Below the pieces are notes generated by a model. The model had not been told where the DNA came from and ran no database searches. It saw nothing but the letters and a program-made list of their open reading frames with translations. From the IMG/VR virus record IMGVR_UViG_2526164634_000022: a stretch of DNA of 19,598 nt. One strand, given 5' to 3'. Positions 1,445-19,598 of this stretch are shown in pieces. Position 1 is the stretch's first letter; each line of letters starts with the position of its first letter. A program made the translations under genes and the position numbers. This stretch comes from a virus (taxonomy: Duplodnaviria; Heunggongvirae; Uroviricota; Caudoviricetes).

Positions 1445-1461
1445 TTCATACATCTCCCCAA

Positions 1462-1545: not shown

Positions 1546-1609
1546 TCTACGGTCAGATGGGGGTACTTATGGGGGTATTTGCTGTTCGGTTTAGTGGAGG
1601 TACCCCCAA

Positions 1610-3886: not shown

Positions 3887-3898
3887 CGGAGACTGAAA

Positions 3899-4732
3899 AT
3901 GAACATCGAAAAAAGCAGATTAATTTCTGAGGCTGCCCCTCATCTAAACGCCTCTCTGGGCACAATTAACGGTAATGAATTTGCCGCAATTGTCCCGGTT
4001 ATTCCTGGTCATATCGGTGGGCGTGAAACCAATATTGTTAGCGCAAAAGCGTTACACAAAGCGTTGGACGTGGGAAAAGACTTCTCTACATGGATCACTG
4101 ATCGCATCTCTGAATATGACTTCACCATTGGGCACGATTACTCAGTCCATAAAACTATTTCCCCAAATTTGGGGAAAATCCCGAATGGCGCGGCTTACAG
4201 CAAGATTAAGCAGTCTGGAAGACCCGGCAAAGACTATCTGTTAAGTGTCGGAATGGCGAAAGAACTGGCAATGATCGAACGCAATGATCAGGGGCGCGCT
4301 ATCCGTCGTTATTTCATCCAGTGCGAGGAAGAATTACAGCGTAGCGTGCCTGAAATCGCCGCCCGCTATCGTCGCCAGCTAAAAGCCCGTATCAGTGCCG
4401 CAAACAACTTTAAGCCAATGTGCGATGCGCTGAATATGGCCCGTGCCGAGATGGGGAAAACGACGCAGCAACACCACTACACAAACGAGAGCAATATGAT
4501 TTCTCGTATCGTTCTTGGTGGGCTAACTGCTAAGCAGTGGGCGCGGATAAATGGCTATTCTGGCGAACCTCGCGACCATATGAACGCAGAACAGCTTGAG
4601 CACCTCTCATATCTCGAAAGCACCAATATCACGTTAATTGATATGGGCATGGAATATGAGCAGCGCAAAGGAGAACTCACCCGCCTGTCGCAACGCTGGC
4701 TCGCTAAGCGTCTGGAGGCGGTCCATGTTTAA
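3899..4732 (+). CDS. AntA/AntB-type phage antirepressor-like protein
   Basis: 277-aa ORF with GGAG 7 nt upstream. N-terminal region (SAKALHKALDVGKDFSTWITDRISEYDFTIGHDY ... LSVGMAKELAMIERNDQGRAIRRYFIQCEE) resembles the AntA antirepressor domain; C-terminal half unassigned. Confidence 0.7.
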   Translation: MNIEKSRLISEAAPHLNASLGTINGNEFAAIVPVIPGHIGGRETNIVSAKALHKALDVGKDFSTWITDRISEYDFTIGHDYSVHKTISPNLGKIPNGAAYSKIKQSGRPGKDYLLSVGMAKELAMIERNDQGRAIRRYFIQCEEELQRSVPEIAARYRRQLKARISAANNFKPMCDALNMARAEMGKTTQQHHYTNESNMISRIVLGGLTAKQWARINGYSGEPRDHMNAEQLEHLSYLESTNITLIDMGMEYEQRKGELTRLSQRWLAKRLEAVHV

Positions 4733-4907
4733 GCCGACAGGAACACCACAACCTCAAAAACGCTACAAAGATGCCCACGGAGCACTCGTTACTGTCGAAA
4801 GCGTGTCTCACAACCGAGTGACGTTTTATCGCGACGGGTATCAATCGCCATGCGTACAACCGCTGGCACGTTTCATGAAGGAGTTCGCGGAGGTTAACAA
4901 ATGCTAA
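4725..4907 (+). CDS. small hypothetical protein (60 aa)
   Basis: ATG at 4725 with GGAGG 6 nt upstream, overlapping the end of the previous gene by 8 nt; in frame with the listed 4638-4907 ORF. Confidence 0.45.
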   Translation: MFKPTGTPQPQKRYKDAHGALVTVESVSHNRVTFYRDGYQSPCVQPLARFMKEFAEVNKC

Positions 4908-5968
4908 CCGCCCAGAAGAAGACATTTTCACTGGCTGGTATGTCGCCAAAATCCAGCAATATGACAGCAAAGTCAGGCATTAATACAGCAGATACAAGCA
5001 AAGTTTATCATTTGCTGGTGGTAGGAGCGGATGCCTTAACTATGTCAGAAATTACGGTCGATGGTGTTAGCGTTGAGAAGGTCAGCGGCTGCGCCAGAGA
5101 ATTTCTGGTCGTAGATGGCTTTCTCTGCTCGCGTAGTGACTCCACAAAAACCTTCGTCCACGCGCGTGACGTTAACGAAATGAGCGCGATGTACTGTGCT
5201 TCTGGTTCTTCCAATAGTGAGTTTTCGGAGTCCATAAAAAAGAGCTTGCCGTTATGCGGCAACACGGTTTATGGTTATAAGGCACCTCATAAAACGGGTG
5301 CCGGGATTGGCGTCCTGGTAAATCGAATGGCGACATATGACGCGCCGAGCGTCTTTTTTTATGTCGTAGGTCTGACTCACCCATTTTTTGGGCGTTGGTG
5401 TATAATCCAGCGCCTTTGTCAATCAATGGTGGCTCAGGCAGGGGCTTCTTCGGAAGCGCCGGTATCCATTCGAGCCGGTTACGCCAACCCTGTCTGGGCT
5501 ACCACCAGCGAAATTGGCGTTTCCGGTGGTAGCGTTACATGCTATCGAATGGAGGCTGCCACATGCTGGCTACTACCCCTACCCAAAAACCGCAATTTAT
5601 CTGGATTATCGCCGCAGTTCGCCGCGATTGCCCGACAATTACCGCCAAAATTCATCATATTGCTGCCGAGTCTGAACGCGATGCTCGCCGTTCTCTGGTG
5701 CGCGATCACGTCTGCTTTTTTGCTGGTCGTATCCGCATGGAGGTGGCACATGATTAAAACCTACGATGTGCATATGGATCCCCTCGAACGCACAAGCCAG
5801 ATCATCACACTGACAGAAGTGATTAACGACATTCTGGTGAGCAACTCTCCCTCACGAGACGAAAGACTGAAGGCGTTACTCGCGATATTGGATCTCGCCG
5901 TTCGTGACGTTCATTTCCTGCTGGAAGGTGGCGAAATGCCAGTAAAAACGGGGGAAACCAATGAATAA
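4901..5968 (+). CDS. long ORF of uncertain structure; 4901-5560 looks coding, the 3' part overlaps two better-supported small genes
   Basis: ATG at 4901 with GGAGG 9 nt upstream; the frame stays open for 355 codons, which is unlikely by chance; no recognisable family. True end unknown. Confidence 0.3.
5563..5757 (+). CDS. small protein, possibly Icd-like (P4-family host cell division inhibitor-like)
   Basis: ATG at 5563 with GGAGG 7 nt upstream; 64 aa ([57 protein letters not shown]...); the resemblance to Icd-like proteins is from memory, not a search. Confidence 0.45.
   Translation: MLATTPTQKPQFIWIIAAVRRDCPTITAKIHHIAAESERDARRSLVRDHVCFFAGRIRMEVAHD
5750..5968 (+). CDS. small hypothetical protein (72 aa)
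   Basis: ATG at 5750 with GGAGG 6 nt upstream; overlaps the previous stop (ATGATTAA); first gene of a chain of coupled small genes. Confidence 0.5.
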   Translation: MIKTYDVHMDPLERTSQIITLTEVINDILVSNSPSRDERLKALLAILDLAVRDVHFLLEGGEMPVKTGETNE

Positions 5969-6155
5969 CTCAATTAATACCCCTCGCCTTACGTCCGCAC
6001 TTCAATTAATCGAGCAAGCAGCGGCTGTCCTGGTTGCTGTCAGTCTTTCGGCTGAAGAAATGGACGCTACTGATGTCGTGGATGCGATTAAAGCGTGCTC
6101 ATCTTTGGTTAACGATGCCCGTGCAGAGCTGGTAATTCTTGGGGGTGAAAAATGA
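5961..6155 (+). CDS. small hypothetical protein (64 aa)
   Basis: ATGAATAA start/stop overlap with the upstream gene; G-rich RBS upstream. Confidence 0.5.
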   Translation: MNNSINTPRLTSALQLIEQAAAVLVAVSLSAEEMDATDVVDAIKACSSLVNDARAELVILGGEK

Positions 6156-6415
6156 ATATCAACTTAATTTATCGTCATCCGTGTGAGCTGGAAATTGAAT
6201 CATTGCTGAGCCGTGAAGAGCCATATCCAGACACATTCACTCTTGCAGATCGCACGACTGAACGGCTTACCAGAGCGCGCACAGGTCTGGTTCATGTGAT
6301 GAATGAGATTCTTCCATCGGTGGGAGGGGAACAGGCGACAGTAATCACTAGCTGGCTACAAAAAGTTACCTCTCTGATAGATATCAGTTTAATCGATGCG
6401 GAGAGTGCGAAATGA
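6152..6415 (+). CDS. small hypothetical protein (87 aa)
   Basis: ATGA start/stop overlap; GGGGGTGA RBS upstream. Confidence 0.55.
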   Translation: MNINLIYRHPCELEIESLLSREEPYPDTFTLADRTTERLTRARTGLVHVMNEILPSVGGEQATVITSWLQKVTSLIDISLIDAESAK

Positions 6416-6633
6416 CCAACATCCAGCTCATTGAAGCGCAATGTCGCATCGAACAGGTTCAGACTGTTTTAGGGTTCTGGCTTGAAGGGGCCAGCCCCAG
6501 CAACAGAGACAAGTTAATGATTGGCGCGGTTATGTCACTGCTCAATGGCGTACCAGAAGCTATTCAGGAAGCAGACGAATTGTTGGGCAAATATGAGTTA
6601 CAGAATCATTCAGGCGAGGCGAAACATGAATAA
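6412..6633 (+). CDS. small hypothetical protein (73 aa)
   Basis: ATGA start/stop overlap; GGAGAG RBS upstream. Confidence 0.55.
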   Translation: MTNIQLIEAQCRIEQVQTVLGFWLEGASPSNRDKLMIGAVMSLLNGVPEAIQEADELLGKYELQNHSGEAKHE

Positions 6634-7228
6634 TTTCTTAACTTTCCATGCAGAAGCAACGCCTGACGGCGTAAACATCATGCACCGCAGCAACGATGGC
6701 ATGACAGAACGCGTTGAGACCGTCTCATATATTGATGCCGTAAATCGTCTGGATGCCGGGGATTATGACGATAAACCAGATGAAGGCATGTCAATACATC
6801 TCGCTATAGCCGATGGCGGCAACCAGGGATATTTCGATTACACATCACAGCATAACGTCATTATGTGGAGATGGCTGATCGCAACAGTATTCATGCTGGA
6901 AATGAGAGAGGAAAACGGCACTGTCAGCATCATTGATGATACTGGCAATCCTTCCGAAGTGGCTGTTTATTCCAACGGCATCGTCGCCATGCCGCTGTAT
7001 CCAGTAGCAGAGCGCCTCGCTATGGCAAACAACATTGAGGGCGCGATGATAGAACGTTTTGGCATCGAGTCTGGCACAGAACGCGCCATCATTTTCTACA
7101 GAGCCATGATGGATGTGGAACAAGGAGCACTGACTCCATTTGGTCGTGAAACGCTTGCTGAACTTCACAACAGCTTTATAGCTGAACTGAATGAAAACGG
7201 CATGCCAGCGGAACCAGTGACGCACTGA
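6626..7228 (+). CDS. hypothetical protein (200 aa)
   Basis: Most likely start is ATG 6626 (ATGAATAA overlap with the upstream stop), not the longer 6521 ORF; part of the coupled operon. Confidence 0.6.
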   Translation: MNNFLTFHAEATPDGVNIMHRSNDGMTERVETVSYIDAVNRLDAGDYDDKPDEGMSIHLAIADGGNQGYFDYTSQHNVIMWRWLIATVFMLEMREENGTVSIIDDTGNPSEVAVYSNGIVAMPLYPVAERLAMANNIEGAMIERFGIESGTERAIIFYRAMMDVEQGALTPFGRETLAELHNSFIAELNENGMPAEPVTH

Positions 7229-7238
7229 GGATGGAGCC

Positions 7239-7580
7239 ATGATTACTAAAAATTTCCGACTGAATGCGCTGGCAAATAAGTATGCGTCGGCACTGTATAA
7301 CCACATTACCTCCACCAGCGGCGGGGACTATTTCATGGTTGATGCGGACGGCGAGGCCGTACGTGTGGAAATCGTCAATGGAGTAAAAGGCGTTCGCAGC
7401 CTGATCGATAGCTACACACTGGCAGCCATGAAAGTGTTCTACCCGCAGTGGGAAACCGTGGGGATCGAGCTTCTTGAGCGTTGCGTCACTAAGGACGGAT
7501 TGACTGACGTCGGGCGTGAGATATGGCAAAGCATGGTTAATGACATGGGCGCAACTGTAGCGGGAGGTTCTCATGCGTGA
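7239..7580 (+). CDS. hypothetical protein (113 aa)
   Basis: ATG with GAGGATGGAG upstream; 10 nt after the previous stop. Confidence 0.6.
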   Translation: MITKNFRLNALANKYASALYNHITSTSGGDYFMVDADGEAVRVEIVNGVKGVRSLIDSYTLAAMKVFYPQWETVGIELLERCVTKDGLTDVGREIWQSMVNDMGATVAGGSHA

Positions 7581-7944
7581 AAATGCAGAAATGGCGCTTA
7601 GCTCCGCAATCGGAGAGCAGGTGGCAAAGATTGCTGGTGCTGTGTGGATTCATAACCTTCATTCTACTGGTGAAGAGAAAATGGCAATTCAGACGCCAGA
7701 GGGACGCACCATTACTACATCTCTGAAGCCGTCAGATGTTTGTGATCTGATTTGCGCATTCATGTACCCAGCAATGAGGACTGTCCACGGCGATAAGTGG
7801 AAACTTGCGACAACCGCTGAATTTGATATGTGGCTAAACAATGATGGCATGCTGACTGATTACGGAATAACCAAGTGGCAGATGCTGGTTAGCCATATCG
7901 CAAACGCTATAGACCACGTGGGGTACGGTGATGCGAAACATTGA
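7573..7944 (+). CDS. hypothetical protein (123 aa)
   Basis: ATG with GGGAGG RBS; overlaps neighbours at both ends. Confidence 0.6.
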   Translation: MRENAEMALSSAIGEQVAKIAGAVWIHNLHSTGEEKMAIQTPEGRTITTSLKPSDVCDLICAFMYPAMRTVHGDKWKLATTAEFDMWLNNDGMLTDYGITKWQMLVSHIANAIDHVGYGDAKH

Positions 7945-10687
7945 TCTTATCCGTCAGGTTATCAGTGCGTCTGAAAACAACTGGCCTCATGTGCTGGGCT
8001 GCCTGAACATAAATGTCCCTGACTCTCCGCGCCGTCATGCTCCCTGCCCTGCATGTGGGGGCAAAGATCGATTCCGGTTCGATGACAACGGGCGCGGTAG
8101 CTTCATCTGTAATCAGTGCGGCGCTGGTGATGGGCTGGATTTAATTAAACGCGTAAATAACTGCGACACAACAGAGGCGGCGCTTCTTGCCGCTGATGTT
8201 CTGGGTATTGATTACCGGACAACGGAAACACCAGAAGCCACCAGCCAGAAACGGGAACAACTGGAAACCGAGCGCCAGCGACGCGAACAGGAGCGCCTGA
8301 AAAGGGCAGAGAAGGACGAACAACAAAGACGGGATACGTTTTCCCGTCAGTTTGATGACATGCGCAGAAAGGCTGTAAACGGCAAATCTGATTATCTGGT
8401 TGCGAAAGGGGTAGGTGATTTTACATTCCCCGTGTTGCCCGATGGATCTCTGTTGCTGGCGCTGGTGGATAAATCCGGCGCAGTCACAGCAGCACAGACT
8501 ATTACCTCACATGGTGAAAAAAGACTCCTGACAGGTTCAGCAAAGCGGGGGGCATATCACGCCTTAAACGCACCAGAAACAACACAGAGCATCTTAATCG
8601 CAGAAGGGCTGGCAACGGCATTATCTGCCCATTTAATTCGTCCAGAGGCGCTGACAGTGGCGGCAATTGATGCCGGGAACCTGTTATATGTGGCCCAGGT
8701 ACTGCGGGATAAATTTCCTTCAGCACAAATCATCATTGCTGCGGATAACGACCACAGCGAAGGAAGACAAAACACGGGGAGAATAGCAGCAGAAAAAGCA
8801 GCTTTATCTGTTTCTGGATGGGTGGCATTACCCCCGACAGATCACAAAGCAGACTGGAATGATTACCACCAAAAACACGGCATTAAATGCGCCACAGAAG
8901 CGTTCAATAAGTCAATGTACCAACCACAGGGTAATGGCGTGAAACAGGAGCCACAGACCATTGAGGGAAGCGATTTTAAGGTTATGGATACCGACCCACT
9001 GAAACCAAGAATAGAAAGCCGCGAGGATGGTATTTATTGGGTATCTCCGAGAGCTGACAACCAGAGTGGAGAAATCATCAATAACGAAAGCTGGTTATGT
9101 TCTCCGTTAAGCGTTATCGGTACTGGCAGAGACGATAAAGACCAGTATCTCATTCTTCGCTGGCTGTCGTTTGGTTCTGAAACGCCGACAACCGCTGCCA
9201 TTCCACTGGCTGATATTGGTGAACGTGAAGGATGGCGCACACTTAAAGCTGGTGGGGTAAATGTCACGACCAAAAGCAGCCTCAGAGCAATACTGGCAGA
9301 CTGGCTACAACGCAGTGGCTCTCGTGAATTGTGGCGTGTTGCTCATGCCACTGGCTGGCAATGCGGAGCGTACATCATGCCTGATGGGGAAATCATCGGA
9401 ACACCTGAAAATCCTGTGCTGTTCAGCGGGAGAAGCTCAGCCGCAGCCGGATATACCGTCTCAGGGAGCGCGAAAAGCTGGCGTGATAACGTGGCGCGTC
9501 TGGCCTTTGGTAACTATTCAATGATGACCGGGATAGGCGCAGCACTGGCAGCGCCATTGATTGGGCTGGTGGGCGCTGACGGGTTCGGCATTCATTTCTA
9601 TGAGCAGTCGAGCGCAGGTAAGACCACCACGGCAAACGTGGCGAGCAGCTTATACGGCAACCCTGATTTACTGCGGCTGACGTGGTACGGAACCGCGCTG
9701 GGGCTGGCAAATGAGGCCGCCGCCCACAATGACGGACTAATGCCGCTTGATGAAGTTGGTCAGGGCGCTGATCCTGTCAGCGTTTCACAGTCTGCCTATG
9801 CGTTATTTAACGGTGTAGGGAAACTGCAAGGCGCTAAAGATGGTGGAAACCGGGATCTAAAACGCTGGCGTACAGTGGCAATCAGCACCGGAGAAATGGA
9901 TTTAGAAACATTTATCGCTACTTCCGGGCGAAAAACCAAAGCCGGGCAACTGGTGCGACTGCTGAATATTCCGTTGAGTAAAGCAGTACGCTTTCACGAT
10001 TACCAGAACGGAAAACAGCACGCAGACGCACTGAAAGACGCTTACCAGCATCACCACGGCGCGTCCGGGCGTGAGTGGATTAAATGGCTGGCAGACCACC
10101 AGCAACAGGCTATTAAAACCGTTCGTGACTGCGAAAGCAGATGGAGAAGCCTGATCCCATCCGATTATGGTGAGCAGGTTCACCGTGTAGCCGCGCGATT
10201 TGCCATTCTGGAGGCCGCATTGTTGTTAGGCGAGGTTGTAACAGGCTGGGATGCTCAGACATGCCGTGATGCGATACAGCACAGCTATAACGCATGGTTG
10301 CGCGAGTTCGGCACAGGTAACAAAGAGCATCAGCAGATTATTGAACAAACGGAGGCATTTCTTAATGCCTATGGGCTTAGCCGTTTTGCACCATTTCCAT
10401 ACAGCCCGGCAGATTTGCCCATCAAAGATTTAGCCGGATACCGTCAGCGTGGAGAACATGACGAAAGCCCAATGATTTTCTACACATTCCCGGCCACATT
10501 TGAAAAGGAGATCGCATGTGGTTTCAACGCAAAACAGTTTGCTGAAGTGTTGAAAAAAGCCGGGATGCTAACCCCACCAAACAGCGGTCGTGGATACCAA
10601 AGAAAATCACCACGTATTCAGGGACGACAAATAAACGTTTATGTACTCAATTACCAGCCAGGAGATTATAACTCATCTGAAGAATGA
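7928..10687 (+). CDS. P4-alpha-like primase / replication protein (zinc-ribbon + Toprim primase + P-loop/DUF927-like C-terminal domain)
   Basis: 919-aa ORF (GTG 7928 or ATG 7931). N-terminal Cys4 zinc ribbon (CPACGG...CNQCG); Toprim-like motifs ILIAEGLATALSA (compare the P4 alpha EGYATA motif) and IIIAADNDHSEGRQNTG; P-loop-like YEQSSAGKTT; followed directly by an iteron origin. Confidence 0.9.
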   Translation: MMRNIDLIRQVISASENNWPHVLGCLNINVPDSPRRHAPCPACGGKDRFRFDDNGRGSFICNQCGAGDGLDLIKRVNNCDTTEAALLAADVLGIDYRTTETPEATSQKREQLETERQRREQERLKRAEKDEQQRRDTFSRQFDDMRRKAVNGKSDYLVAKGVGDFTFPVLPDGSLLLALVDKSGAVTAAQTITSHGEKRLLTGSAKRGAYHALNAPETTQSILIAEGLATALSAHLIRPEALTVAAIDAGNLLYVAQVLRDKFPSAQIIIAADNDHSEGRQNTGRIAAEKAALSVSGWVALPPTDHKADWNDYHQKHGIKCATEAFNKSMYQPQGNGVKQEPQTIEGSDFKVMDTDPLKPRIESREDGIYWVSPRADNQSGEIINNESWLCSPLSVIGTGRDDKDQYLILRWLSFGSETPTTAAIPLADIGEREGWRTLKAGGVNVTTKSSLRAILADWLQRSGSRELWRVAHATGWQCGAYIMPDGEIIGTPENPVLFSGRSSAAAGYTVSGSAKSWRDNVARLAFGNYSMMTGIGAALAAPLIGLVGADGFGIHFYEQSSAGKTTTANVASSLYGNPDLLRLTWYGTALGLANEAAAHNDGLMPLDEVGQGADPVSVSQSAYALFNGVGKLQGAKDGGNRDLKRWRTVAISTGEMDLETFIATSGRKTKAGQLVRLLNIPLSKAVRFHDYQNGKQHADALKDAYQHHHGASGREWIKWLADHQQQAIKTVRDCESRWRSLIPSDYGEQVHRVAARFAILEAALLLGEVVTGWDAQTCRDAIQHSYNAWLREFGTGNKEHQQIIEQTEAFLNAYGLSRFAPFPYSPADLPIKDLAGYRQRGEHDESPMIFYTFPATFEKEIACGFNAKQFAEVLKKAGMLTPPNSGRGYQRKSPRIQGRQINVYVLNYQPGDYNSSEE

Positions 10688-10712
10688 GCTTCTTCATGTG
10701 CGTAGAAAAGGT

Positions 10713-10832
10713 GTTGGTTCAGTTGGTTCAGTTGGTTCAGTTGGTTCAATTTGTAAAGAGTATTGTTTTATAAGGATTTTATTCTTTTTATTGAACCAAC
10801 ACTGAACCAACAACACGGTATTTTGAACCAAC
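10713..10832. repeat. Iteron-type replication origin: GTTGGTTCA x4 tandem (10713-10748), AT-rich spacer (10749-10791), then inverted TGAACCAAC x3 (10792-10800, 10803-10811, 10824-10832)
   Basis: Exact 9-bp units read from the sequence; iterons flanking an AT-rich segment, 26 bp downstream of the primase stop. Confidence 0.8.
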
Positions 10833-10882
10833 ACAATGTGACTGAATTGATGCGCACAACACCTGGCTGGCATCAGAGAGTG

Positions 10883-10958
10883 TTTTACGAGACTTTCGTA
10901 AAATCCTGTGTACAAGGGCGTGACGTTTTTGAAAGTGAGCACTACGAAATTTTCGTAG
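10883..10958. promoter_or_regulatory. Two related palindromes: TTTTACG-N7-CGTAAAA (10883-10903) and CTACGAAA-T-TTTCGTAG (10942-10958); candidate operator sites
   Basis: Inverted repeats seen in the sequence; both share the TACGA/TCGTA half-site; located between the origin and a terminator. Confidence 0.3.
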
Positions 10959-11152
10959 TTCAGAAAACAGCCTCTGAGAAGTTGTTATGCCTGTTCAGCA
11001 AACCATCCGCATAGCTGATCGCGAATCAAATTACCAATGGAGCCAGAAGCAAGGGCAGAACTGAAAAGCGCCTGCCGTGAAGAGTAATGCGACACCATAA
11101 ATATAGTTTTTAGAGTCCATAAAAAACCTGTCAAAACCTGACACACAGAACG

Positions 11153-11186
11153 ATGCCACCAGCTACTGAGCGGTGGCATTTTTTTG
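11153..11186 (+). terminator. Rho-independent terminator
   Basis: Stem ATGCCACC (11153-11160) / GGTGGCAT (11172-11179) with an 11-nt loop, followed by a T-run starting 11180. Confidence 0.6.
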
Positions 11187-11280
11187 TGCTATTTGTTTCA
11201 TATTTTGCAATTACGATGATGAATATTGCGATTTGTGAAACTATAATAACTGTTGTTTTATACAGTTCTAAGGGGGCGTT

Positions 11281-11442
11281 ATGGCTATTTCAGTAAAGCC
11301 GGTATTGATAAGTGAGAAGCAAATGGAAGCGATAAAGAAAATTCAGGAAGAGCAGCGTAAAAAATCAGGAATTGGAGTAGCGCCAACTCTGCATGAAATT
11401 GCACGAGGGTTAATAGATAAGGCGCTGGCAGGCTGTATGTGA
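11281..11442 (+). CDS. small hypothetical protein (53 aa; MAISVKPVLISEKQMEAIKKIQEEQRKKSGIGVAPTLHEIARGLIDKALAGCM)
   Basis: Not in the ORF track (under 60 aa); ATG 11281 with AAGGGGG about 6 nt upstream; preceded by a TATAAT hexamer at about 11243; first gene after the terminator. Confidence 0.5.
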   Translation: MAISVKPVLISEKQMEAIKKIQEEQRKKSGIGVAPTLHEIARGLIDKALAGCM

Positions 11443-11458
11443 AAATGGATGGCATCGC

Positions 11459-11920
11459 ATGGAACTAAAATTTATTGATAACCCTGTGCGATTACAGGCC
11501 TTTCTTAACGAGCCAGGCAATACCGAAAATATTGTTGAGCCGGGGCACACGTACTACATCAAGCCTGATGCGGTATATCTCGGCATCTACGAAGGATTAG
11601 TGCTGGCTGGCGTTCATGAAGTGCGTAACTTCTGGCATAGCGTTGTTGAATGCCATGCGGTGTACGACCCCGGATTCCGTGGTGAATATGCACTGCAAGG
11701 ACATCGATTATTCTGCAAATGGCTTCTCGAAAACTCACCATTCCTTAACAGCATCACTATGGTTCCTGACACCACGAAATACGGACGGGCAATTATCCGT
11801 TTGCTTGGCGCTACCCGTGTTGGTCACCTTGATGATGCTTATATCAGATGTGGTAAACCCGTCGGCGTAACGCTTTATCAGTTAACTCGGCAACAATATA
11901 AGGAATTCAGCGAATGTTAA
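11459..11920 (+). CDS. hypothetical protein (153 aa)
   Basis: ORF with the next gene's ATG overlapping its end; no family recognised. Confidence 0.6.
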   Translation: MELKFIDNPVRLQAFLNEPGNTENIVEPGHTYYIKPDAVYLGIYEGLVLAGVHEVRNFWHSVVECHAVYDPGFRGEYALQGHRLFCKWLLENSPFLNSITMVPDTTKYGRAIIRLLGATRVGHLDDAYIRCGKPVGVTLYQLTRQQYKEFSEC

Positions 11921-12591
11921 TTACCCATATAGCTCATAAACATCTCAATCGTGCCGTATACGAAAAAGGCGGTGATGGTGGTGCCTCTAAAGCTCAGGCG
12001 AAGGCCCAGCAGCAGGCAATTGATTTGCAGCGCGAGCAGTGGAATACGGTGATGAATAATCTCAAGCCGTATGCAGAAGTCGGATTGCCTGCTTTACAAC
12101 AACTACAAGGACTGATGACTCTGGAAGGGCAGAATAAAGCCGCGAATGATTTCTTTGGTTCTGGTTTATATAAAACACAGGCAGATCAGGCCCGTTATCA
12201 GAACCTTGTCTCAGCAGAAGCTACCGGGGGGCTTGGCTCAACAGCTACCAGTAACCAGTTATCTTCCATTGCGCCCATGCTTTATAACAATTGGCTTAGT
12301 GGGCAAATGCAAAATTATGGAAACCTGCTAAATGTCGGGATGAATGCGGCATCAGGGCAGGCAACGGCAGGGCAAAACTACGCCAATAATACCGGACAAC
12401 TCTTGCAGGGGCTTGGCGCTATTCGTGCAGGTCAGGCGCAGCAGCCATCCAGTCTTGCGCGTGGTATTGGTGGGGCAGCATCAGGCGCTTTAGCGGGTGC
12501 GCAACTTGGTTCCGTTGTTCCTGGAATAGGAACTGCGGCCGGCGCTATTGGTGGTGGGCTTATTGGTCTTGTTGGGGGGCTTGGATTCTAA
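11914..12591 (+). CDS. Q/A/G-rich protein, possibly a P22-family ejection (DNA-transfer) protein gp7 homolog
   Basis: 225 aa; N-terminal YEKGGDGGASKAQAKAQQQ, Q/N/A-rich middle, Gly-rich hydrophobic C-terminus (GIGTAAGAIGGGLIGLVGGLGF); size and first position in a three-gene coupled operon match P22 gp7 (229 aa). Homology is recalled, not searched. Confidence 0.5.
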   Translation: MLITHIAHKHLNRAVYEKGGDGGASKAQAKAQQQAIDLQREQWNTVMNNLKPYAEVGLPALQQLQGLMTLEGQNKAANDFFGSGLYKTQADQARYQNLVSAEATGGLGSTATSNQLSSIAPMLYNNWLSGQMQNYGNLLNVGMNAASGQATAGQNYANNTGQLLQGLGAIRAGQAQQPSSLARGIGGAASGALAGAQLGSVVPGIGTAAGAIGGGLIGLVGGLGF

Positions 12592-14012
12592 TGGCGACAT
12601 GGCAACTTGGCGGGCTGCCTAGCATGGCACCGCAAAATGATAATGCTCCTCGTTCTTCCGTTCCTCAGCCTGTGCAGTATCAGCAGCAGCCAAACGTAGG
12701 TTTAATGGCGCTACAGGGGCTAAGAGGCGTTGCTGAGATTAATCAGCAGGCACGTCAACAACAGCGTAAAGCAGAGTTTCAGAAAGCATATGCCGGGGCT
12801 TTTGAGTCTGGAGACAGAAACAAAATGCGCAGTCTTATTTCTGAGTATCCAGAAGAATTTGAAAGCGTTCAGAAAGGGATGGGCTTTATTGATGACGACC
12901 AGAGAAATTCTATTGGTCATCTTGCGACTAGTGCTCAAATCGCATCTTCGCTCGGAACTGGGGCATTTGGAAAATTCATAGCAGATAACGAAGATGAAAT
13001 GCGTCGCTTGGGAATTTCTCCTGAGTCTGTTGCCGAAATGCATGTTAATGATCCACAGGGGTTCCAGCGGCTTGCTGGTAGTATGGCACTGTTTTCTCTC
13101 GGTCATGAGAAGTATTTCGATATCAAAGATCAAATGGAAGGTCGGGATATTGAGCGTGGCAAGTTGGCAGAAACAATCCGCAGCAATCAGGCTGGCGAAG
13201 CACTTCAGGCGAGAGGGCAGGATATTAGCCGAGCAAATGCGTTAACGTCAGCATATGCACCAACAGCAGCAATGCAGAATTACAATCAGTACGCTCAAAT
13301 GTTAAAGGCGGATCCAGAGGGGGCGGCGGCATTTGCGGCAGCGGCTGGAATTAATACAAACGCCAAAAAATTAATGAGTGTTAGAGAAAACGATGATGGC
13401 ACTGTCACAAAATACTACACAGACGGAAGTGAAGAGCAGGGAAAACTAAACCAGCCAATATCTGGAGATGGGTTTCGTCCAATAGCTTTGCCAACAGCCC
13501 AAAAGATCATGGAAAAGTCGCCAGAAGGGGCTAAAAAAGCTGCTGGATTTGCATACAGGGTTAGGGATGCTCTTGATTCAATAGATACACTGAAAGACCA
13601 GCTTAGCCCACAGCGAGTGGCGATCATTAATAATGCTTTGGGTAATGGGACGCTGGCTAACTTAACGCTCAGCCCAACAGAACAGCAATACGTTGTTAAT
13701 GCTAATGACGCAATAATGGCAATACTCCGTCAGGAAACAGGGGCAGCCATCGTACCTGCTGAAATGTCAAAATATTATCAAATGTATTTCCCTCAGCCTG
13801 GCGACTCCACAAAAACCATTGATACCAAGCGCCGGAAGATGGAAAACCAGTTCAATTCGCTGAAAGCTGCTTCTGGTCGAGCTTATGATGCTTTGCGGGT
13901 TATTTCAGCAGTTGACAGAGGAACTTCTTCTTCGTCGCAGACATTGCCGCAATCTGAGCAGGTATCACAGCCAGCAGCCAGCAGTAACTTTTCTTCACTA
14001 TGGGGTGATTAA
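12591..14012 (+). CDS. Q/A-rich protein, possibly a P22-family ejection protein gp20 homolog
   Basis: 473 aa (P22 gp20 is 471 aa); TAATG start/stop overlaps at both ends; low-complexity Q/A-rich composition. Confidence 0.5.
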   Translation: MATWQLGGLPSMAPQNDNAPRSSVPQPVQYQQQPNVGLMALQGLRGVAEINQQARQQQRKAEFQKAYAGAFESGDRNKMRSLISEYPEEFESVQKGMGFIDDDQRNSIGHLATSAQIASSLGTGAFGKFIADNEDEMRRLGISPESVAEMHVNDPQGFQRLAGSMALFSLGHEKYFDIKDQMEGRDIERGKLAETIRSNQAGEALQARGQDISRANALTSAYAPTAAMQNYNQYAQMLKADPEGAAAFAAAAGINTNAKKLMSVRENDDGTVTKYYTDGSEEQGKLNQPISGDGFRPIALPTAQKIMEKSPEGAKKAAGFAYRVRDALDSIDTLKDQLSPQRVAIINNALGNGTLANLTLSPTEQQYVVNANDAIMAILRQETGAAIVPAEMSKYYQMYFPQPGDSTKTIDTKRRKMENQFNSLKAASGRAYDALRVISAVDRGTSSSSQTLPQSEQVSQPAASSNFSSLWGD

Positions 14013-16116
14013 TGGCTAAAGCATGGAAAGATGTTATCGCCTCTCCACAGTATCAGGCGTTAGCACCAGAACAAAAAGCGCAGGCTCAGGAGCAATACTT
14101 CAATGAAGTCGTGGCCCCGCAAGCCGGAGAAAGTGTAGAGCAGGCTAAGCAGGCTTTTTATGCTGCCTATCCACTACCATCAACGAATGAAATAGACCGA
14201 TCCCAATCAGCAACTCAAAATATTCAACATACATCATCTGATAATTCTCTTGCGTCAGGGTATGCAAAGTTAGCTACTCAGCAAAGAGAGGGGCTTGAGC
14301 GTTCAGCAGAACAGGGAGCCAGTCTTGGGGCTGCGATGCGCGATGCTATAACAGGCGAAAGCCGAATGACTCCAGAGATGGAGAGACTGCAAAATGTCGA
14401 CCTTGCCCCAGAGTTAACCTCACTCAGCATGGATGCTCTAAAAGCTCGATGGTCTCAACTTTTCGGCTCTGACGCATCTCAGGAAAAGATTCTTCAGAGC
14501 ATGGGAGCGAAATTAAGGCAGGATGAGAAGGGTAACACTATCGTTTCCCTGCCATCCGGTGATTATGCTCTGAACAAGCCGGGTTTATCGCCGCAAGACG
14601 TGGCATCGTTTCTGGCTAATGCGCAGGCGTTTACACCAGCGGGCAGGGCTGGAACGGTGCTTGGTGCCATAGGAAAATCAGCAGCTACAGATTTAGCACT
14701 ACAGGGAGCCACTAGCCTTGCTGGTGGAGAAGATATTGATCCGTTACAAACGGTAATTTCTGCTGGCATTGGTGGTATTGGTAAGGGGCTGGAAAATACA
14801 GCGAGTGCGGTTTCGAGGGCTGTTCGTGGTGATATGTCGCCTGAAGCAAAGGCTGCTGTCGACTTTGCATCGGAAAGAAATCTGCCGTTAATGACCAGTG
14901 ACATGCTAAAAGATAAAACCTTTATGCAGAGTCAGGCTCAGACATTAGGCGAAAGAGTTCCTTTTTTGGAACCGGTAAGAATCGGCTGAATCAACAACAA
15001 GCACGAGAAAATTTAGTCAGAACATTTAGCGATGGTCTGGGTGGCATTTCTGATAAACAGCTTTATGAATCTGCGACTAAAGGGCAACAAAAATTCATTG
15101 AGGCAGCGGGAAAGCGATATAACCGCATAATTGACGCTATGGGGGATACCCCTGTCGATCTCTCAAACACGGTAAAAGCTATCGACAATCAGATTGCCGT
15201 GTTAAGCCGCCCGGGCAAATCTCAGGATAGAGCCGCGGTAAAAGTCTTGCAGCAATTTAAAGACGATATCACCAGCGGACCAAATGACCTGCGTCTGGCG
15301 AGGGAAAACAGAACCGATCTTCGAAATCGATTTATGGCGTCATCTGACACTGTTGATAAAGATACGCTCCAGAAAGCCAGCGATATTATCTACAAGGCAT
15401 ATACGGCGGATATGAAAAAAGCCGTAGCCAAAAATCTTGGAGCAGACGAAGCCATTAATATGGCAAGGGTTGATCGCTCATGGTCTAAATTCAATGACAT
15501 GATGGGAAGAACGCGCGTTCAAAAGGCAATAGCCAGCGGCAAGGCCACGCCTGAGGATGTAACAAAACTCGTTTTTAGCCAAAGCCCATCAGAACGTTCT
15601 CAGCTTTACAGGCTTCTGGATGACAATGGTAGGCAAAACGCACGAGCAGCCATAGTTCAGAATGCTGTAGATAAGGCGACTGATCCGTCTGGAAATATCA
15701 GTGTTGAGAAGTTTATTAATGCGTTACACCGGAACAGGAAGCAATCAGCAACTTTCTTTAAAGGCGTACATGGAAAGGAACTGGACGGCGTTATTAAATA
15801 CCTCAACGATACAAGACACGCGGCAAAAGCGAACGTTCAAAACTTAAATGGTCAGCAGCTTTATGGATTGTTAGTTGGTGGTGGCATCATAAACGCAGCA
15901 GTATTAGCGGGGATGCTAAAAACGGCTGCGTTTGTTGTTCCTGCTGCTGGTGCCGTAGGCGGAGCAGCGAAGGCATACGAAAGCCCTGTTATACGAAATG
16001 CCTTGTTACGTCTGGCAAATACGCCAAAAGGTAGCACAGCATATGACAGAGCGATCAGTACGGTCACACAATCGCTCACCAGAGTCGCACAGGCATCACA
16101 AAAAGAAGCTCAATAA
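14012..16116 (+). pseudogene. gp16-like ejection protein gene split by a frameshift (or homopolymer sequencing error): ORF halves 14012-14989 and 15139-16116
   Basis: The downstream frame is open with no ATG from 14917 to 15138, overlapping the end of the upstream ORF; a T6 run at 14962-14967 lies in the overlap; the 150-bp gap contrasts with the 1-nt overlaps elsewhere in the operon. Confidence 0.55.
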
Positions 16117-16135: not shown

Positions 16136-16750
16136 TTAGATATCTCTGCTGTCTCCATTAGGAAATAAAAGATAATATGGATTTGCCTTTCTTGCTCTCC
16201 TTGCTTCACCTGGATACCTGTTAGTCAGTAGCTTGCATAATGAGCAGAGAACAACACTCAAGAAAATTCCGAATGAGAAGATCAATATCTCACCAAAAAT
16301 CAATGGCGATATTAAATTTTCAGGATTTAATGATAAGTCAATGTTAAAAACATATTGAGCAATACCAGTAAGTATCAATAATATAATCCCTATGGAATAC
16401 ATTGCTGTTTCCCAAACATCAGACAGTCTATTTTTGAATTGTTCGCTGGAGTAGTAGTTTGTTATAAAGTCAGAAAAATCACTCTCATATGCATCATCTT
16501 TAGGTGATGTTAGAAATCCTCTGTCTCTCCATACCTTCTCCCAATTAGTCGATTCTTTTTTTAAGGAAAAATAAATATGTATTGCCAAAAGGATAGCCAA
16601 AATTGGTGTTAGCTCTAAAAAATAGAATGTTATGGAATAAATAATACTGCCATGTTCAAACTCATCTGGGACTATCATGTATGCACAAAAATAAATTGAA
16701 AAGTACACCATGCAGATAGTTAGCAATTCTTTAGTATCTTTTCTGCTCAC
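16136..16750 (-). CDS. AT-rich integral membrane protein (about 4 TM helices); candidate superinfection-exclusion (SieA-like) or other membrane effector
   Basis: 204-aa ORF, GTG start at 16750 with AAGGGGG 5 nt upstream; hydrophobic segments (LLTICMVYFSIYFCAYMIV, ILAILLAIHIYF, IGIILLILTGIAQYVF, IFGEILIFSFGIFLSVVLCSL); about 33% GC versus about 50% in flanks; convergent with the gp16-like gene, as sieA is with gene 16 in P22. Confidence 0.7.
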   Translation of the reverse strand: MSRKDTKELLTICMVYFSIYFCAYMIVPDEFEHGSIIYSITFYFLELTPILAILLAIHIYFSLKKESTNWEKVWRDRGFLTSPKDDAYESDFSDFITNYYSSEQFKNRLSDVWETAMYSIGIILLILTGIAQYVFNIDLSLNPENLISPLIFGEILIFSFGIFLSVVLCSLCKLLTNRYPGEARRARKANPYYLLFPNGDSRDI

Positions 16751-16863
16751 ACCAACCCCCTTTAGCGTTGTTTAGAATGGCAATCATCATATATCCAAGA
16801 CATGGCATTTGGTACATAGCTTGGGTCGGGATTTCAAATCCGCCCCCGTTGATGGGGTCGTTA

Positions 16864-17260
16864 CAGTACGCGCATATCCGCTTTATGTGAAACAGGAAGA
16901 TTTTTCTGATATCACTGCCACAGCAAAACACCAATTTCGAGACAAGTACGCGCGCGAGGGGTATCAGTTGCAAAAAGTTTTGCAACTGCGTCCGACCAGT
17001 ACGCACACAATGGAGGGGAGTACCATAAAACTGTTCTCTACATAAGACAGAGTGGTGGTGATGTGTTGATTATCGGCGTATATGCGCACAGGACGCGCTA
17101 TGACGATGTTTTATGCGGGTACACCAATCACATGTATCTGGTGTGATAAATCGCGTTACATGACATCTCATGTTGTGCTGGTGGTTATCACGACGTTCTG
17201 AATCTGGCCTTTGCCTGATATTTTGCGACAAGTACGCGCGCGTAGCATAGAAATTATCGG
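16864..17260. repeat. Repeat-rich noncoding region: exact 16-bp direct repeat GACAAGTACGCGCGCG (16941-16956, 17227-17242), AGTACGC(G/A)C motif x4, and palindrome CAGTTGCAAAA-AG-TTTTGCAACTG (16965-16988)
   Basis: Repeats read from the sequence; no convincing ORF with an RBS; lies between the membrane-protein gene and the Abi gene. Confidence 0.45.
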
Positions 17261-17393
17261 ATGGCGTATGCTGCTGGCAATATGAAGACCGATAGTATTA
17301 ACCGAAAAGCGATTAAGGAGTGCCAACTTTTCAGTAGAGAAACTAGCCAGCATAGGAAAATGTAGAAATTACCCAATTAATAGGTAAAAGTTA

Positions 17394-17523
17394 TTGACAC
17401 AGCCTGTAGTGGATAACGATATGAATAAAAACCACATATAGTGGTTTTTCGTGAGTGATGATAGTATCTATGTTAGTTTCCTAAGTAACTGTGCATTGAC
17501 ATGTGGATAACTTCGGATAGAGT
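17394..17523 (+). promoter_or_regulatory. Two candidate sigma70 promoters for the Abi gene, each with a DnaA-box-like site next to the -35 (TTGACA 17394-17399 + AGTGGATAA 17408-17416; TTGACA 17496-17501 + TGTGGATAA 17502-17510, -10 TAGAGT 17518-17523)
   Basis: Two perfect TTGACA hexamers; TGTGGATAA is the reverse complement of the DnaA box TTATCCACA. -10 elements are weak. Confidence 0.3.
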
Positions 17524-17619
17524 TACAGGCAACCGAGCCCGATCCTCTGTTTCTCCGCCGCCGATTTCAGGCATGTGAGTTTCACGGTCGGGCCTTTTAT
17601 TATCTTTTGTTTCGCCACT

Positions 17620-18597
17620 ATGATTGCCGCAAAGCCTCATAAGGACTATCACGAATTGCTAGGATTGCTACTTGAACGTGGCATGATTATCAATGATCGA
17701 AATCGTGCGATACGTAAGCTGTCGCAGGTTGGATATTATCGATTGTCAGGTTTTTGGTACCCATCAAGAATTATTGCGACAACAGATAAAGGTCTTTCGT
17801 ACAGAACAGACCGATTTCTTGCTGGTACCAGTTTCGAGAAGACGTACGATCTATATCTTTTTGACAAAAAACTGCGTCTTTTGATGATTGATGCTATCGA
17901 AAGAATAGAGATTCATGTTCGTTCAGTCATCGCGCATGAGGTTGGTCGCAATGATCCACTTGCCTACATGTCATCAAAATACATTAATCCAAAATTCTCA
18001 TCTGCCTTCGAGCATTGGGTGTATAAGCAAAAAGTAAAATTAGACGAAAGCAGAGATGACTGTATTGAATGGCATCGAAGCCAAGGCAAGGAGATTCCAT
18101 TTTGGGTGGCGGTGGAGACCTGGGATTTTGGTCAGATGTCTAAATATTATGCGATGCTTAATGGTCATATGCAGGGGAAAATTATACGTCGTTTTGGCAT
18201 TGATAATAAGCAGACATTTGCAAAATGGTTGAAGTGCCTTAATCTCATAAGGAATCGTTGCGCTCACCATTCCAGAATATGGAATAGAAAGCATCCCCGA
18301 GTTCCAGTACCGGATAATGAATACTTTGACGGACTTAATCTCCATCCAGAGAGTTGCGAGAGGATTTTTAGCGCGATCTGTATTATCTGGTACTTAGTTA
18401 AACGACTTGGTCCGGGATCAACATGGCTTCGGCAAATTGCAGACCTTATTGACTCTAAACCAAATGTTCCCGGATGTGGATATGATTCAATGGGTTTACC
18501 TGCTAAAGGATTCCCACGAGAGAGATTCTCTCAGGACTTAGGTTTTGTTATCGCCGACAACGACCCTGTAGCTGAAGGGCGGAAAGGGAGCGATTGA
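17620..18597 (+). CDS. Abi_2 family abortive-infection protein (AbiD/AbiF-like)
   Basis: Motifs YYRLSGFWYP, ERIEIHVRSVIAHEVG and NLIRNRCAHHSRIWN, characteristic of the AbiD/AbiF (Abi_2) family. Start set at the first in-frame ATG (17620); the track ORF extends to a GTG at 17575. About 40% GC. Confidence 0.8.
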   Translation: MIAAKPHKDYHELLGLLLERGMIINDRNRAIRKLSQVGYYRLSGFWYPSRIIATTDKGLSYRTDRFLAGTSFEKTYDLYLFDKKLRLLMIDAIERIEIHVRSVIAHEVGRNDPLAYMSSKYINPKFSSAFEHWVYKQKVKLDESRDDCIEWHRSQGKEIPFWVAVETWDFGQMSKYYAMLNGHMQGKIIRRFGIDNKQTFAKWLKCLNLIRNRCAHHSRIWNRKHPRVPVPDNEYFDGLNLHPESCERIFSAICIIWYLVKRLGPGSTWLRQIADLIDSKPNVPGCGYDSMGLPAKGFPRERFSQDLGFVIADNDPVAEGRKGSD

Positions 18598-18626
18598 GCG
18601 ATAAATATCATTTATACACTGATCAA

Positions 18627-19067
18627 TTACTGAAGCAGCGTATTGATTCTTTTAATATTGTTACCCTGACGCTTCCACGCGCTGTAAATGTCTTTATCCC
18701 ACGCTTTACCAGCTTTTGTTTGGTAGCCTGCTTCATTGAGTCGTTCCGCTATCACACGCCCATTATCAAATCCCTGTCGGATGGTATCGGCAATGATCTT
18801 TATAACTGCTGTTTCGTTATATGGCTTTGGTGGGATGTTCGGCTTTCCGGCAATAAGCGATGCTGCGGCTTTTTCCATGCGCTCCACCAGCCCAAGCATT
18901 CGTGAATCAATAGACTTTTCCGGCTGTCCCAGCTTCATGCGAATCGCATCAACAAGCCAGGAGGTTTTATCCCCTCCAGAAGCGAGAACAGACCGATTAA
19001 ACTCATCCTGCAATTCAGATGGGATGCGGAACGCGATCAGATTAGATTTGCTCATTGCAAAGACCAT
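18627..19067 (-). CDS. Arc/MetJ-type ribbon-helix-helix DNA-binding protein with a C-terminal recombinase-like DNA-binding segment
   Basis: 146 aa (start 19067 or 19055). N-terminus NLIAFRIPSELQDEFNRSVLASGGDKTSWLVDAIRMKL fits a beta-strand/helix/helix RHH fold; C-terminal GRVIAERLNEAGYQTKAGKAWDKDIYSAWKRQ resembles the recombinase domain of serine recombinases; palindrome GTATAACA-C-TGTTATAC (19090-19106) just upstream. Confidence 0.65.
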   Translation of the reverse strand: MVFAMSKSNLIAFRIPSELQDEFNRSVLASGGDKTSWLVDAIRMKLGQPEKSIDSRMLGLVERMEKAAASLIAGKPNIPPKPYNETAVIKIIADTIRQGFDNGRVIAERLNEAGYQTKAGKAWDKDIYSAWKRQGNNIKRINTLLQ

Positions 19068-19316: not shown

Positions 19317-19598
19317 ATGATAAAGGACAGGAAAGCTGAAGAGCTGGAGTCAAAAGGGCTATACCGGAGAGCTGCCGCACGATGGATGGAAGTCATGCTG
19401 TTATGCACCGAGGACGATGATCGGGAATGGATAAAGCGCCGCCGTGAAACGTGTCTGGAGAACGTGAAGCGCCCGCCCGTGAAGGTTGAGGACTTTGGCG
19501 ACCTGCATAAAGCTGTTACCGAAACGCAACACCGCATGGGGATAGCGCAACCGAACGGTAACGCCTTCCGGTTAAATGGCGGCAAGAGGCAAAGGTAG
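19317..19598 (+). CDS. PerC-family transcriptional activator-like protein
   Basis: 93-aa ORF ending with a stop at 19596-19598; N-terminus MIKDRKAEELESKGLYRRAAARWMEVM matches the PerC/Pch family signature; starts 37 bp after the iteron cluster. Confidence 0.75.
   Translation: MIKDRKAEELESKGLYRRAAARWMEVMLLCTEDDDREWIKRRRETCLENVKRPPVKVEDFGDLHKAVTETQHRMGIAQPNGNAFRLNGGKRQR

Follow-up and report, generated by a model that had tools for sequence, protein, structure and literature searches.

A divergent SieA-like gene beside ejection-protein genes in an EcCIMP1-type phage satellite of Escherichia coli

Introduction

Near the end of the IMG/VR virus record IMGVR_UViG_2526164634_000022, a stretch of 19,598 nucleotides which we will call the window, a gene for a small membrane protein faces the end of a gene similar to gene 16 of phage P22. 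In P22 itself, this is the place of the superinfection exclusion gene sieA, and a first-pass annotation of the window proposed an exclusion or abortive-infection protein. This raises the question of whether the gene is really related to sieA, and what it is doing in this element. We have found that the protein, as judged by its sequence, is a real, very divergent and unannotated relative of SieA, which is supported by homology and not by position alone.

SieA proteins have been described by Leavitt et al. (2024, PMC10883804). The SieA protein of P22, and likewise that of E. coli HS1, can block DNA injection by P22-like phages on its own, while other phage types are not affected. P22 SieA has been located to the inner membrane. 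The block resembles the behavior of virions without ejection proteins, with no K+ efflux, and escape mutations map to gp16 and gp20. It is partly overcome by high multiplicity, and generalized transducing particles are also excluded. Three types have been defined, with identities below 30% between types. P22 belongs to type A, with three transmembrane (TM) helices. HS1 belongs to type B, where a further TM helix is present at the N-terminus. Type C has an N-terminal extension of about 40 amino acids and is only found in Providencia, Morganella, and Proteus. Types B and C have four TM helices. The proteins from E. coli and Salmonella are of type A or B. All sieA genes examined in that study were located between gene 16 and gene 9 of a P22-like prophage.

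Homology to SieA

BLASTP aligns the sieA-like protein to P22 SieA (type A) with 29% identity over 108 amino acids (E = 8e-8), and to the experimentally active SieA of HS1 (type B) with 34% identity over 118 amino acids (E = 2e-9). The PHROG 7745 family, described as "superinfection exclusion SieA-like", also matches the protein (E = 4.4e-4). Because membrane proteins may align through composition alone, we have shuffled the targets 2000 times, both globally and inside blocks of 10 residues, which keeps the local composition. None of the 2000 shuffled targets reached the real score: the z values were 10.4 and 7.4 for P22, 16.3 and 8.5 for HS1.

Profile comparisons with hhalign agree with these results. 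A profile of the gene's own clade, built from five sequences, matches the type A alignment with a probability of 96.6% (E = 4.8e-10), and the type B clade formed by HS1 and Morganella with 98.5% (E = 2.2e-15). The latter match covers 170 columns, it is nearly full length and includes both N-terminal helices. The sensitive searches which the first-pass annotation had recommended do find the relationship that it had proposed from gene position.

A phmmer search of 1.84 billion representative proteins gives only 22 hits. Three of them are the E. coli protein itself, as identical or as truncated or frameshifted copies. The other 19 belong to its own clade or are SieA-like proteins with three TM helices, and all of them contain both of the motifs described below. 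Four longer relatives are included among the hits, and the three-TM proteins match residues 89-194, approximately.

The first motif, found before TM3, may be written Y-S-S-E-x-F-x-N-R-x-S-D, or S..x..NRxSD in short form. The second, found after TM4, may be written C-K-L-L-T-x-R-Y-P-G-E-A-x-x-x-R-K, or RYPGEA...K. Residues N107, R108, D111, and P180 are invariant in the three family alignments we have used (A1, A2, and A7). R178 is invariant in A1 and A2, and at least 90% conserved in A7. Y179, E182, A183, and K188 are invariant in A1 and mostly kept in wider sets, A183 and K188 in at least 90% of the sequences. Leavitt et al. (2024, PMC10883804) report FxRYPxEAxxFNK as the most conserved stretch of SieA, with a predicted cytoplasmic location, and the second motif corresponds to it. 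The version found here, T-N-RYPGEA-RR-ARK, matches the RYPxEA core and the final K.

Other libraries give no family assignment. The Pfam scan only finds noise below the threshold (MnhB, 15.7 bits against a cut-off of 22.5 bits), and nothing is above threshold in the NCBIfam and PADLOC scans (TIGR00943, 13.9 against 139.75 bits). These negative results are not informative on membership in the SieA family, since P22 SieA itself is unmatched in all three libraries. In fact, a SieA model is missing from both PADLOC and NCBIfam. A profile search of PDB sequences gives no significant match either. No match at E <= 1 is found in a tblastn search of 50,697 phage genomes, a search which is too insensitive to reach P22 sieA: none of these sequenced phages carries this type of sieA.

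The subthreshold matches are the only data which might point to a housekeeping transporter or to an antiporter subunit. We have looked for clear homology to such proteins, which the first-pass annotation had named as the observation that would contradict its proposal, and have found nothing beyond MnhB and TIGR00943. On the other hand, only 103 of 5426 complete E. coli genomes (about 2%) contain the gene, which belongs to a mobile island in every context examined, there is no PDB match by fold or by sequence, and the few relatives found among 1.84 billion proteins are all SieA-like. Its distribution and the failed family thresholds effectively refute a transporter, which we consider extremely improbable.

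The gene and the predicted protein

The features of the window are listed in Table 1. An identical coding sequence in E. coli ET565 is labeled as a "hypothetical protein" in RefSeq. The open reading frame (ORF) is a true gene and not a chance ORF, since it has a homolog of 204 amino acids with 50% identity in Citrobacter, and more diverged relatives in Serratia and in Providencia/Proteus. An overlapping ORF of 91 amino acids (16731-17006), which includes the start codon of the sieA-like gene, has no family match in Pfam or PHROG and was judged to be spurious.

Several statements of the first-pass annotation are confirmed. The gene follows the gp16-like gene directly on the opposite strand, the two genes are convergent and their stop codons are separated by 19 bp, against 22 bp in P22, where sieA is indeed convergent to gene 16. 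Its GC content is 33.0%, against 47.4% both in gp16 and in the whole window. The presence of about four TM helices is upheld by hydropathy and by an AlphaFold2 model: four hydrophobic segments are found in a Kyte-Doolittle plot (residues 9-27, 36-60, 113-137, and 148-172, approximately), and the model, based on an alignment of 30 sequences, shows long helices at residues 2-29, 35-65, 104-133, and 148-175, with additional short helices in the loop and in the tail. The mean pLDDT of the model is 83.5 and its pTM is 0.69. Lysine and arginine are enriched at the N-terminus, in the loop formed by residues 63-112, and in the C-terminal tail. The two short loops, formed by residues 28-35 and 138-147, have an acidic or neutral character. 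Under the positive-inside rule, such a distribution suggests that the N- and the C-terminus are both cytoplasmic, in a protein predicted to span the inner membrane four times.

Table 1. Position of the main features in the window (19,598 nucleotides).
Feature	Position	Strand	Remarks
tRNA-Thr	1369-1444		thrW site next to proA
Integrase	1610-2824
isrK Hfq-binding RNA	5282-5359		Rfam, 67 bits
C4 antisense RNA	5422-5509		Rfam, 79.5 bits
gp20-like ejection protein gene	12591..14012	+	Pfam Inj_translocase, 4.5e-58
gp16-like ejection protein gene	14012..16116	+	PHROG 770/29117; convergent partner of the sieA-like gene
sieA-like coding sequence	16136..16750	-	204 amino acids, GTG start, 33.0% GC; ORF and RefSeq coding sequence WP_000087355.1
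Motif CKLLTNRYPGEARRARK (residues 172-188)	16187..16237	-	After TM4, predicted cytoplasmic; corresponds to published SieA motif FxRYPxEAxxFNK (PMC10883804)
TM4 (residues ~148-172)	16235..16309	-	Hydropathy, AlphaFold2
TM3 (residues ~113-137)	16340..16414	-	Hydropathy, AlphaFold2
Motif YYSSEQFKNRLSD (residues 99-111)	16418..16456	-	Before TM3, predicted cytoplasmic; alignments A1, A2, A7
TM2 (residues ~36-60)	16571..16645	-	Hydropathy, AlphaFold2; aligned to TM1 of P22 SieA
TM1 (residues ~9-27)	16670..16726	-	Kyte-Doolittle peak 2.12; AlphaFold2 helix 2-29; extra N-terminal helix, missing from type A SieA
Shine-Dalgarno-like AAGGGGG	16756..16762	-	5 nt 5' of the sieA-like GTG; direct sequence reading
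Best sigma-70-like site, TTGCCA-16-GATAAT	17253..17280	-	About 500 bp from the sieA-like start codon; candidate only
AbiD/Abi_2 gene	17575..18597	+	Pfam Abi_2, 2.3e-52; PADLOC AbiD, 8.4e-58
Conserved 146-aa (amino acid) protein gene	18627-19067	-	Between cargo slot and PerC in every island
PerC-family gene	19317-19598	+	Cut off by the end of the window

Relatives and types of SieA

In a phylogenetic tree, the sieA-like protein is found in a clade which is separate from types A and B. Other members of this clade are a Citrobacter freundii protein (204 amino acids, 50% identity), a Serratia fonticola protein (39-41%), a cluster from Providencia rettgeri and Proteus mirabilis (32-35%), and the protein P0036. 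Two prophages from IMG/VR with 40% GC also carry clade members, which are 34% identical over 177-192 amino acids (E = 6e-29 to 8e-34). Both prophages have a complete P22-like late region, with the order gp26-14-7-20-16, followed by the sieA-like gene, mnt, arc, ant, and gp9. The clade members from these low-GC prophages very probably correspond to the published type C, and the distinct four-TM clade of the E. coli protein is probably type C as well. This assignment is based on the IMG/VR prophages and not on the type C sequences of the original paper (MU9_2893 and HMPREF1563_1315). Probable type C examples (P0035 and the proteins in L049 and L050) share with the E. coli protein the clade and the N-terminal extension of about 40 amino acids, with its extra TM helix. 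They differ in range, as published type C proteins come from the Morganellaceae, while the protein described here comes from E. coli, is 64-66% divergent, and is carried by a PICI (phage-inducible chromosomal island, see below).

The HS1 protein (EcHS_A0321) also has four predicted TM helices and both motifs, and its gene is convergent with gene 16 and AT-rich (36% GC). It belongs to a separate clade, has a different C-terminal tail, and is found in a complete P22-like prophage, with the immI and tailspike genes beyond it. P22 SieA (162-164 amino acids) shares the motifs in the form S..x..NRxxD and RYPGEA...K, its helices align with the last three TM helices of the E. coli protein, and its gene has a low GC content (33.7%) and the same position and orientation relative to gene 16. 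It lacks the N-terminal region of about 40 amino acids with TM1, and also about nine residues at the C-terminus. We have measured the GC content of four pairs of sieA and gp16 genes, with values of 33.0/47.4, 33.7/49.9, 36.3/47.1, and 38.0/50.0%. An AT-rich composition relative to gp16 is common to all four sieA genes.

The Citrobacter homolog is found in a full P22-like prophage, in the sieA slot and convergent to gp16. The order of this locus is coat ... gp7, gp20 (interrupted by an insertion sequence, IS), gp16, the convergent genes mnt-like, orf105, and sieA-like, then arc, ant, tailspike, and int. We have searched for the operon partners mnt-like and orf105 upstream of the E. coli sieA-like gene, and they are absent there.

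A clade member of 199 amino acids, 35% identical, is located in L046 5218-6546 (IMGVR_UViG_2871176517_000001), directly 3' of a gene for a CI-type repressor (HTH_3 and Peptidase_S24 domains). Both genes are on the same strand in a lambdoid prophage, far from any gp16 gene. The slot after the CI repressor is a classic place for exclusion genes expressed in lysogens. This clade member shows that SieA-like genes also occur outside the gene 16 slot.

Three-TM SieA-like proteins with both motifs are also present in environmental Beta- and Gammaproteobacteria (L009-L027), including Pseudomonas, Variovorax, Polaromonas, Methylophilaceae, Woeseiaceae, and others, far beyond the range of Enterobacterales given in the literature. 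No P22-type gp16 or gp20 gene was detected by BLAST near these environmental genes. In two cases (L023 and L025), a PICI-like primase is found within 3-4 kb of the SieA-like gene.

The carrier element

The first-pass annotation had placed the gene in a P22-like setting. This has to be corrected: the window is a variant of EcCIMP1, a PICI from E. coli MP1, which is a satellite island with P22-type ejection-protein genes and not a P22-like prophage. Positions 108-12751 are 97.9% identical to EcCIMP1 (12.6 kb; L030, NZ_CP139039 3557000-3587000). The window starts with proA, tRNA-Thr(CGT), the integrase, an AlpA-type helix-turn-helix protein, AntA/B, DUF4222, and Ash. The C4 antisense RNA and isrK follow, with an Icd-like gene, small genes, and a primase with TOPRIM and DUF927 domains. 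The end of the window contains the genes for gp14-like (DUF2824), gp7-like, gp20, and gp16 proteins, the sieA-like gene (minus strand), AbiD (plus strand), the 146-aa gene (minus strand), and PerC. No coat, portal, terminase, tailspike, or lysis genes are found in the window. In this way, an integrase at a tRNA attachment (att) site, an AlpA-type regulator, and a primase-replicase are combined with the absence of capsid, terminase, and lysis genes. A size of about 15-17 kb and a close relative which is mobilized by a helper were also considered in the classification as a PICI, and mobilization is known for EcCIMP1.

The published location of sieA, between gene 16 and gene 9 of a P22-like prophage, applies to the Citrobacter and low-GC relatives and not to the E. 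coli gene. The P22-like prophage setting is a feature of the known distribution of the family, not of the SieA protein itself.

EcCIMP1 is also inserted at thrW next to proA, and shares this series of genes with the window: int, AlpA, AntA/B, Ash, Icd-like, primase, gp14/gp7/gp20, and PerC. The difference is found from the middle of gp20 onward, where a cassette has been swapped: the C-terminus of gp20 is different, gp16 is an unrelated protein of 906 amino acids with a transglycosylase domain, and AbiD is missing. The sieA-like gene is absent from EcCIMP1, as shown by tblastn. Its slot contains a gene for a lipoprotein of 232 amino acids (L030 12632-13330, lipobox LAGC), on the same strand as gp16.

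EcCIMP1 excises and transfers only with the P22-like helper phage Kapi1. It also confers added superinfection immunity against this phage, and yet no defense system is detected in it by PADLOC or DefenseFinder (Pick, Stadel & Raivio 2025, PMC11773190). We considered whether this published immunity could be credited to the sieA-like gene, and rejected it: the phenotype is not attributable to the sieA-like protein, because EcCIMP1 has a different gene in the slot. The lipoprotein gene is an obvious candidate for an exclusion gene in EcCIMP1.

The isrK and C4 RNAs adjoin the Ash, Icd-like, and antirepressor genes, and form a control module of the P1/P7 immI type (c4-icd-ant) inside the PICI. The PerC homolog of EcCIMP1 represses LEE1 and does not activate it (PMC11773190).

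Distribution in E. coli

The 103 copies found in complete E. coli genomes are all chromosomal, and all of them are labeled as "hypothetical". Their identity is at least 99%. We have examined thirteen E. coli contexts, three RefSeq regions and ten nonredundant places. All thirteen are PICI-type islands with a gp20 gene. Their integrases vary, and so do the att sites they occupy (thrW, yicC/dinD, and next to yagU/pao). They also differ in their primase (DUF927 or DUF5906) and in the presence of gp14 and gp7. In 11 of the 13 contexts, gp16 is followed by the convergent sieA-like gene. The exceptions are L036, which has an IS66 in gp16, and L031, in which no gp16 gene was called. No paper linking SieA with satellites was found in the literature we have searched.

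The gp16 and gp20 genes

The satellite lacks capsid, terminase, and tail genes, and it carries homologs of P22-type gp14 (DUF2824), gp7, gp20, and gp16 (11459-16116). Other islands of the EcCIMP1-type family keep only gp20 and gp16. A role in packaging has been suggested for the ejection-protein genes of EcCIMP1 (PMC11773190). In the window, gp16 is split into two ORFs of 325 amino acids, because one T has been lost from a run of seven (six are found here) at about 14955-14961. In strain ET565, whose sequence is otherwise 99.9% identical, gp16 is intact and has 701 amino acids. The frameshift may come from a sequencing error or from phase-variable slippage, or it may mark a pseudogene.

The frameshift is one of the reasons to consider that the whole 14-7-20-16-sieA segment might be an inert fragment without function, taken over from a P22-like prophage when recombination took place at an attachment site common to both. 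Two other islands have an interrupted or uncalled gp16, as indicated above, P22 and this island both use thrW, and selection on the sieA-like gene is not measurable, since all E. coli copies are at least 99% identical. Nevertheless, 102 of the 103 genomes have a full-length ORF, the module is kept across islands with different integrases, att sites, and primases, and proteins which diverge by 50-66% have retained their length, four TM helices, and motifs. An inert remnant appears to be quite unlikely.

The gp16 protein found beside this type of sieA is always of the same type. It is 98-99.7% identical among E. coli islands, 76% identical to gp16 of the Citrobacter prophage, and 50% and 37% identical to those of the low-GC prophages. 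The gp20 proteins are more mosaic than gp16. The nearest gp16 in a sequenced phage is that of N7 (67%), where unrelated small genes follow gp16.

This strict linkage to one type of gp16, both in PICIs and in prophages, would be expected if the protein were a factor of the satellite life cycle, which handles the gp16 and gp20 of the satellite or of the helper in the producing cell. For example, it might prevent premature membrane insertion or self-intoxication, or bias the loading of ejection proteins, and exclusion would be a side effect at most. The same interpretation would fit EcCIMP1, with an unrelated gp16 and another gene in the slot, and the reported up-regulation of sieA on P22 induction (PMC10883804). 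The known SieA proteins argue against it: the sieA genes of P22 and HS1 suffice for exclusion on their own, with no phage present, and the standard P22 engineering strains are deleted for sieA and give yields similar to those of the c+ lysogen (supplement of PMC10883804). In addition, the relative which is located beside a CI repressor is far from any gp16. We therefore give a low probability to a life-cycle factor.

The cargo slot

The AbiD gene occupies a variable slot, limited by the sieA-like gene on one side and by the conserved 146-aa gene on the other. It is a neighbor and not part of a sieA unit. The slot (16751-18626, and around 8200-10000 in L031-L040) contains AbiD here and in L040. 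The alternatives found in other islands are an M78 peptidase with a protein of 125 amino acids (L032, L033, and L036), a pair of proteins with 318 and 145 amino acids (L034 and L037), and ORFs of 66-73 amino acids. The region between the sieA-like gene and the gene of 146-151 amino acids looks like a defense hotspot of this PICI family.

The presence of AbiD, about 0.8 kb away in the defense-cargo region of the satellite, together with the small size and multi-pass nature of the protein, might suggest an abortive-infection or toxic membrane effector, perhaps acting with AbiD, which would depolarize or permeabilize the membrane and kill the infected cell. We find this very unlikely. AbiD is only present in some islands and is on the opposite strand, while the sieA-like gene is fixed next to gp16. 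The homology is to SieA, an entry blocker which does not kill. The 204-amino-acid protein itself has no Abi_2 domain and no PADLOC hit, as the Abi_2 domain belongs to the neighboring gene. The first-pass annotation had offered exclusion and abortive infection as alternatives: homology, motifs, and synteny favor SieA-like exclusion, and the abortive-infection part is not supported.

The 824-bp region upstream of the sieA-like gene (16751-17574) has no phage match, and part of it (16823-17307) is common to EcCIMP1. The N-terminus of the 146-aa protein, SNLIAFRIPSELQDEFNRSV...WLVDAIRMKL, reads like a ribbon-helix-helix protein. No significant family match was found for it, just PHROG 30270 (E = 3e-4), whose function is unknown. 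This gene precedes the sieA-like gene, with which it shares the strand, much as mnt precedes sieA in P22.

Proposed function

We propose that the sieA-like protein probably acts, by analogy with known SieA proteins, in the inner membrane, where it would disturb the gp20/gp16 conduit at or near the cytoplasmic face and exclude P22-like phages. The protein would be made constitutively and at a low level in the carrier cell, as in the case of P22 and HS1 SieA. The predicted topology, four passes through the inner membrane with cytoplasmic N- and C-termini, would place its two motifs at the cytoplasmic face. We suggest an action at or near this face because the invariant residues lie there. The target would be the conduit formed by the ejected virion proteins, gp20 as the periplasmic tube and gp16 as the inner-membrane part, and either its assembly or its function would be disturbed. 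As a result, P22-like podophages and their transducing particles would be stopped from delivering DNA. Adsorption would proceed normally, the cell would survive, and phages of unrelated types would not be excluded.

Other small inner-membrane proteins encoded by phages or prophages, such as T4 Imm and HK97 gp15, also stop genome entry after adsorption. They are alike in the outline of their action, and their target phages differ. We have not detected any relation to them: the sieA-like protein has no Pfam or PHROG hit to those families.

Several observations weigh against exclusion by this protein. Global identity to the SieA proteins which have been tested is just 18% for P22 and 20% for HS1. 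In the published motif FxRYPxEAxxFNK, the FN is replaced by AR and the first F by T, altered flanks which are common to the whole clade and to many three-TM relatives. The Pfam SieA model PF26849 misses this cluster (P0001, P0002, and P0003), which explains why the protein is labeled as hypothetical. This result was taken from precomputed Pfam annotation, as our local copy of Pfam does not include the model. The same annotation assigns PF26849.1 to type A SieA, including that of P22, and to several three-TM relatives. Foldseek searches of BFVD and PDB with the AlphaFold2 model give no significant match, and the SieA identity is therefore not independently supported by structure. A promoter-site scan finds no convincing sigma-70 promoter within 100 bp upstream of the gene, and promoter-like sites around it are no more numerous than in shuffled sequence. 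The frameshift in gp16 could mean that the module is decaying in this strain. Finally, EcCIMP1, which bears the published immunity phenotype, carries another gene in the sieA slot.

A more specific, speculative extension of SieA-like exclusion may be considered, and we regard it as unlikely. The satellite would carry a matched set: SieA would keep P22-like phages out, including extra copies of its own helper type, and its own gp20 and gp16 would let satellite particles enter recipients protected by SieA. These gp20 and gp16 variants would be loaded into particles built by the helper, and many recipients would be P22-like lysogens, the cells which a satellite needs. If true, the satellite would be using borrowed virion proteins in an arms race between entry and anti-entry. 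This would explain why a PICI without capsid or packaging genes keeps ejection-protein genes, and also the joint change of both genes, with the sieA-like gene next to a gp16 of 701 amino acids here, and the lipoprotein next to the 906-amino-acid gp16 in EcCIMP1.

Significance

The SieA family itself was already known, and the protein we have described is a divergent new member, not a new kind of system. What is new is a third SieA clade in E. coli, overlooked by annotation and by defense finders, on a PICI and beside the satellite's own gp20 and gp16 genes. Defense censuses overlook the gene because it is labeled as hypothetical in RefSeq, PADLOC and NCBIfam have no model for it, and PF26849 misses it. 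The range of SieA is extended to phage satellites and, in E. coli, to this third clade, with a gene present in about 2% of complete genomes.

EcCIMP1-type PICIs gain a concrete gene which can be tested, in a family whose published member shows immunity against its helper with no gene assigned to it. A satellite which carries sieA beside the genes for its two target proteins makes the recognition of diverse gp16 and gp20 proteins by SieA directly testable. The same arrangement bears on the question of why satellites carry ejection proteins at all.

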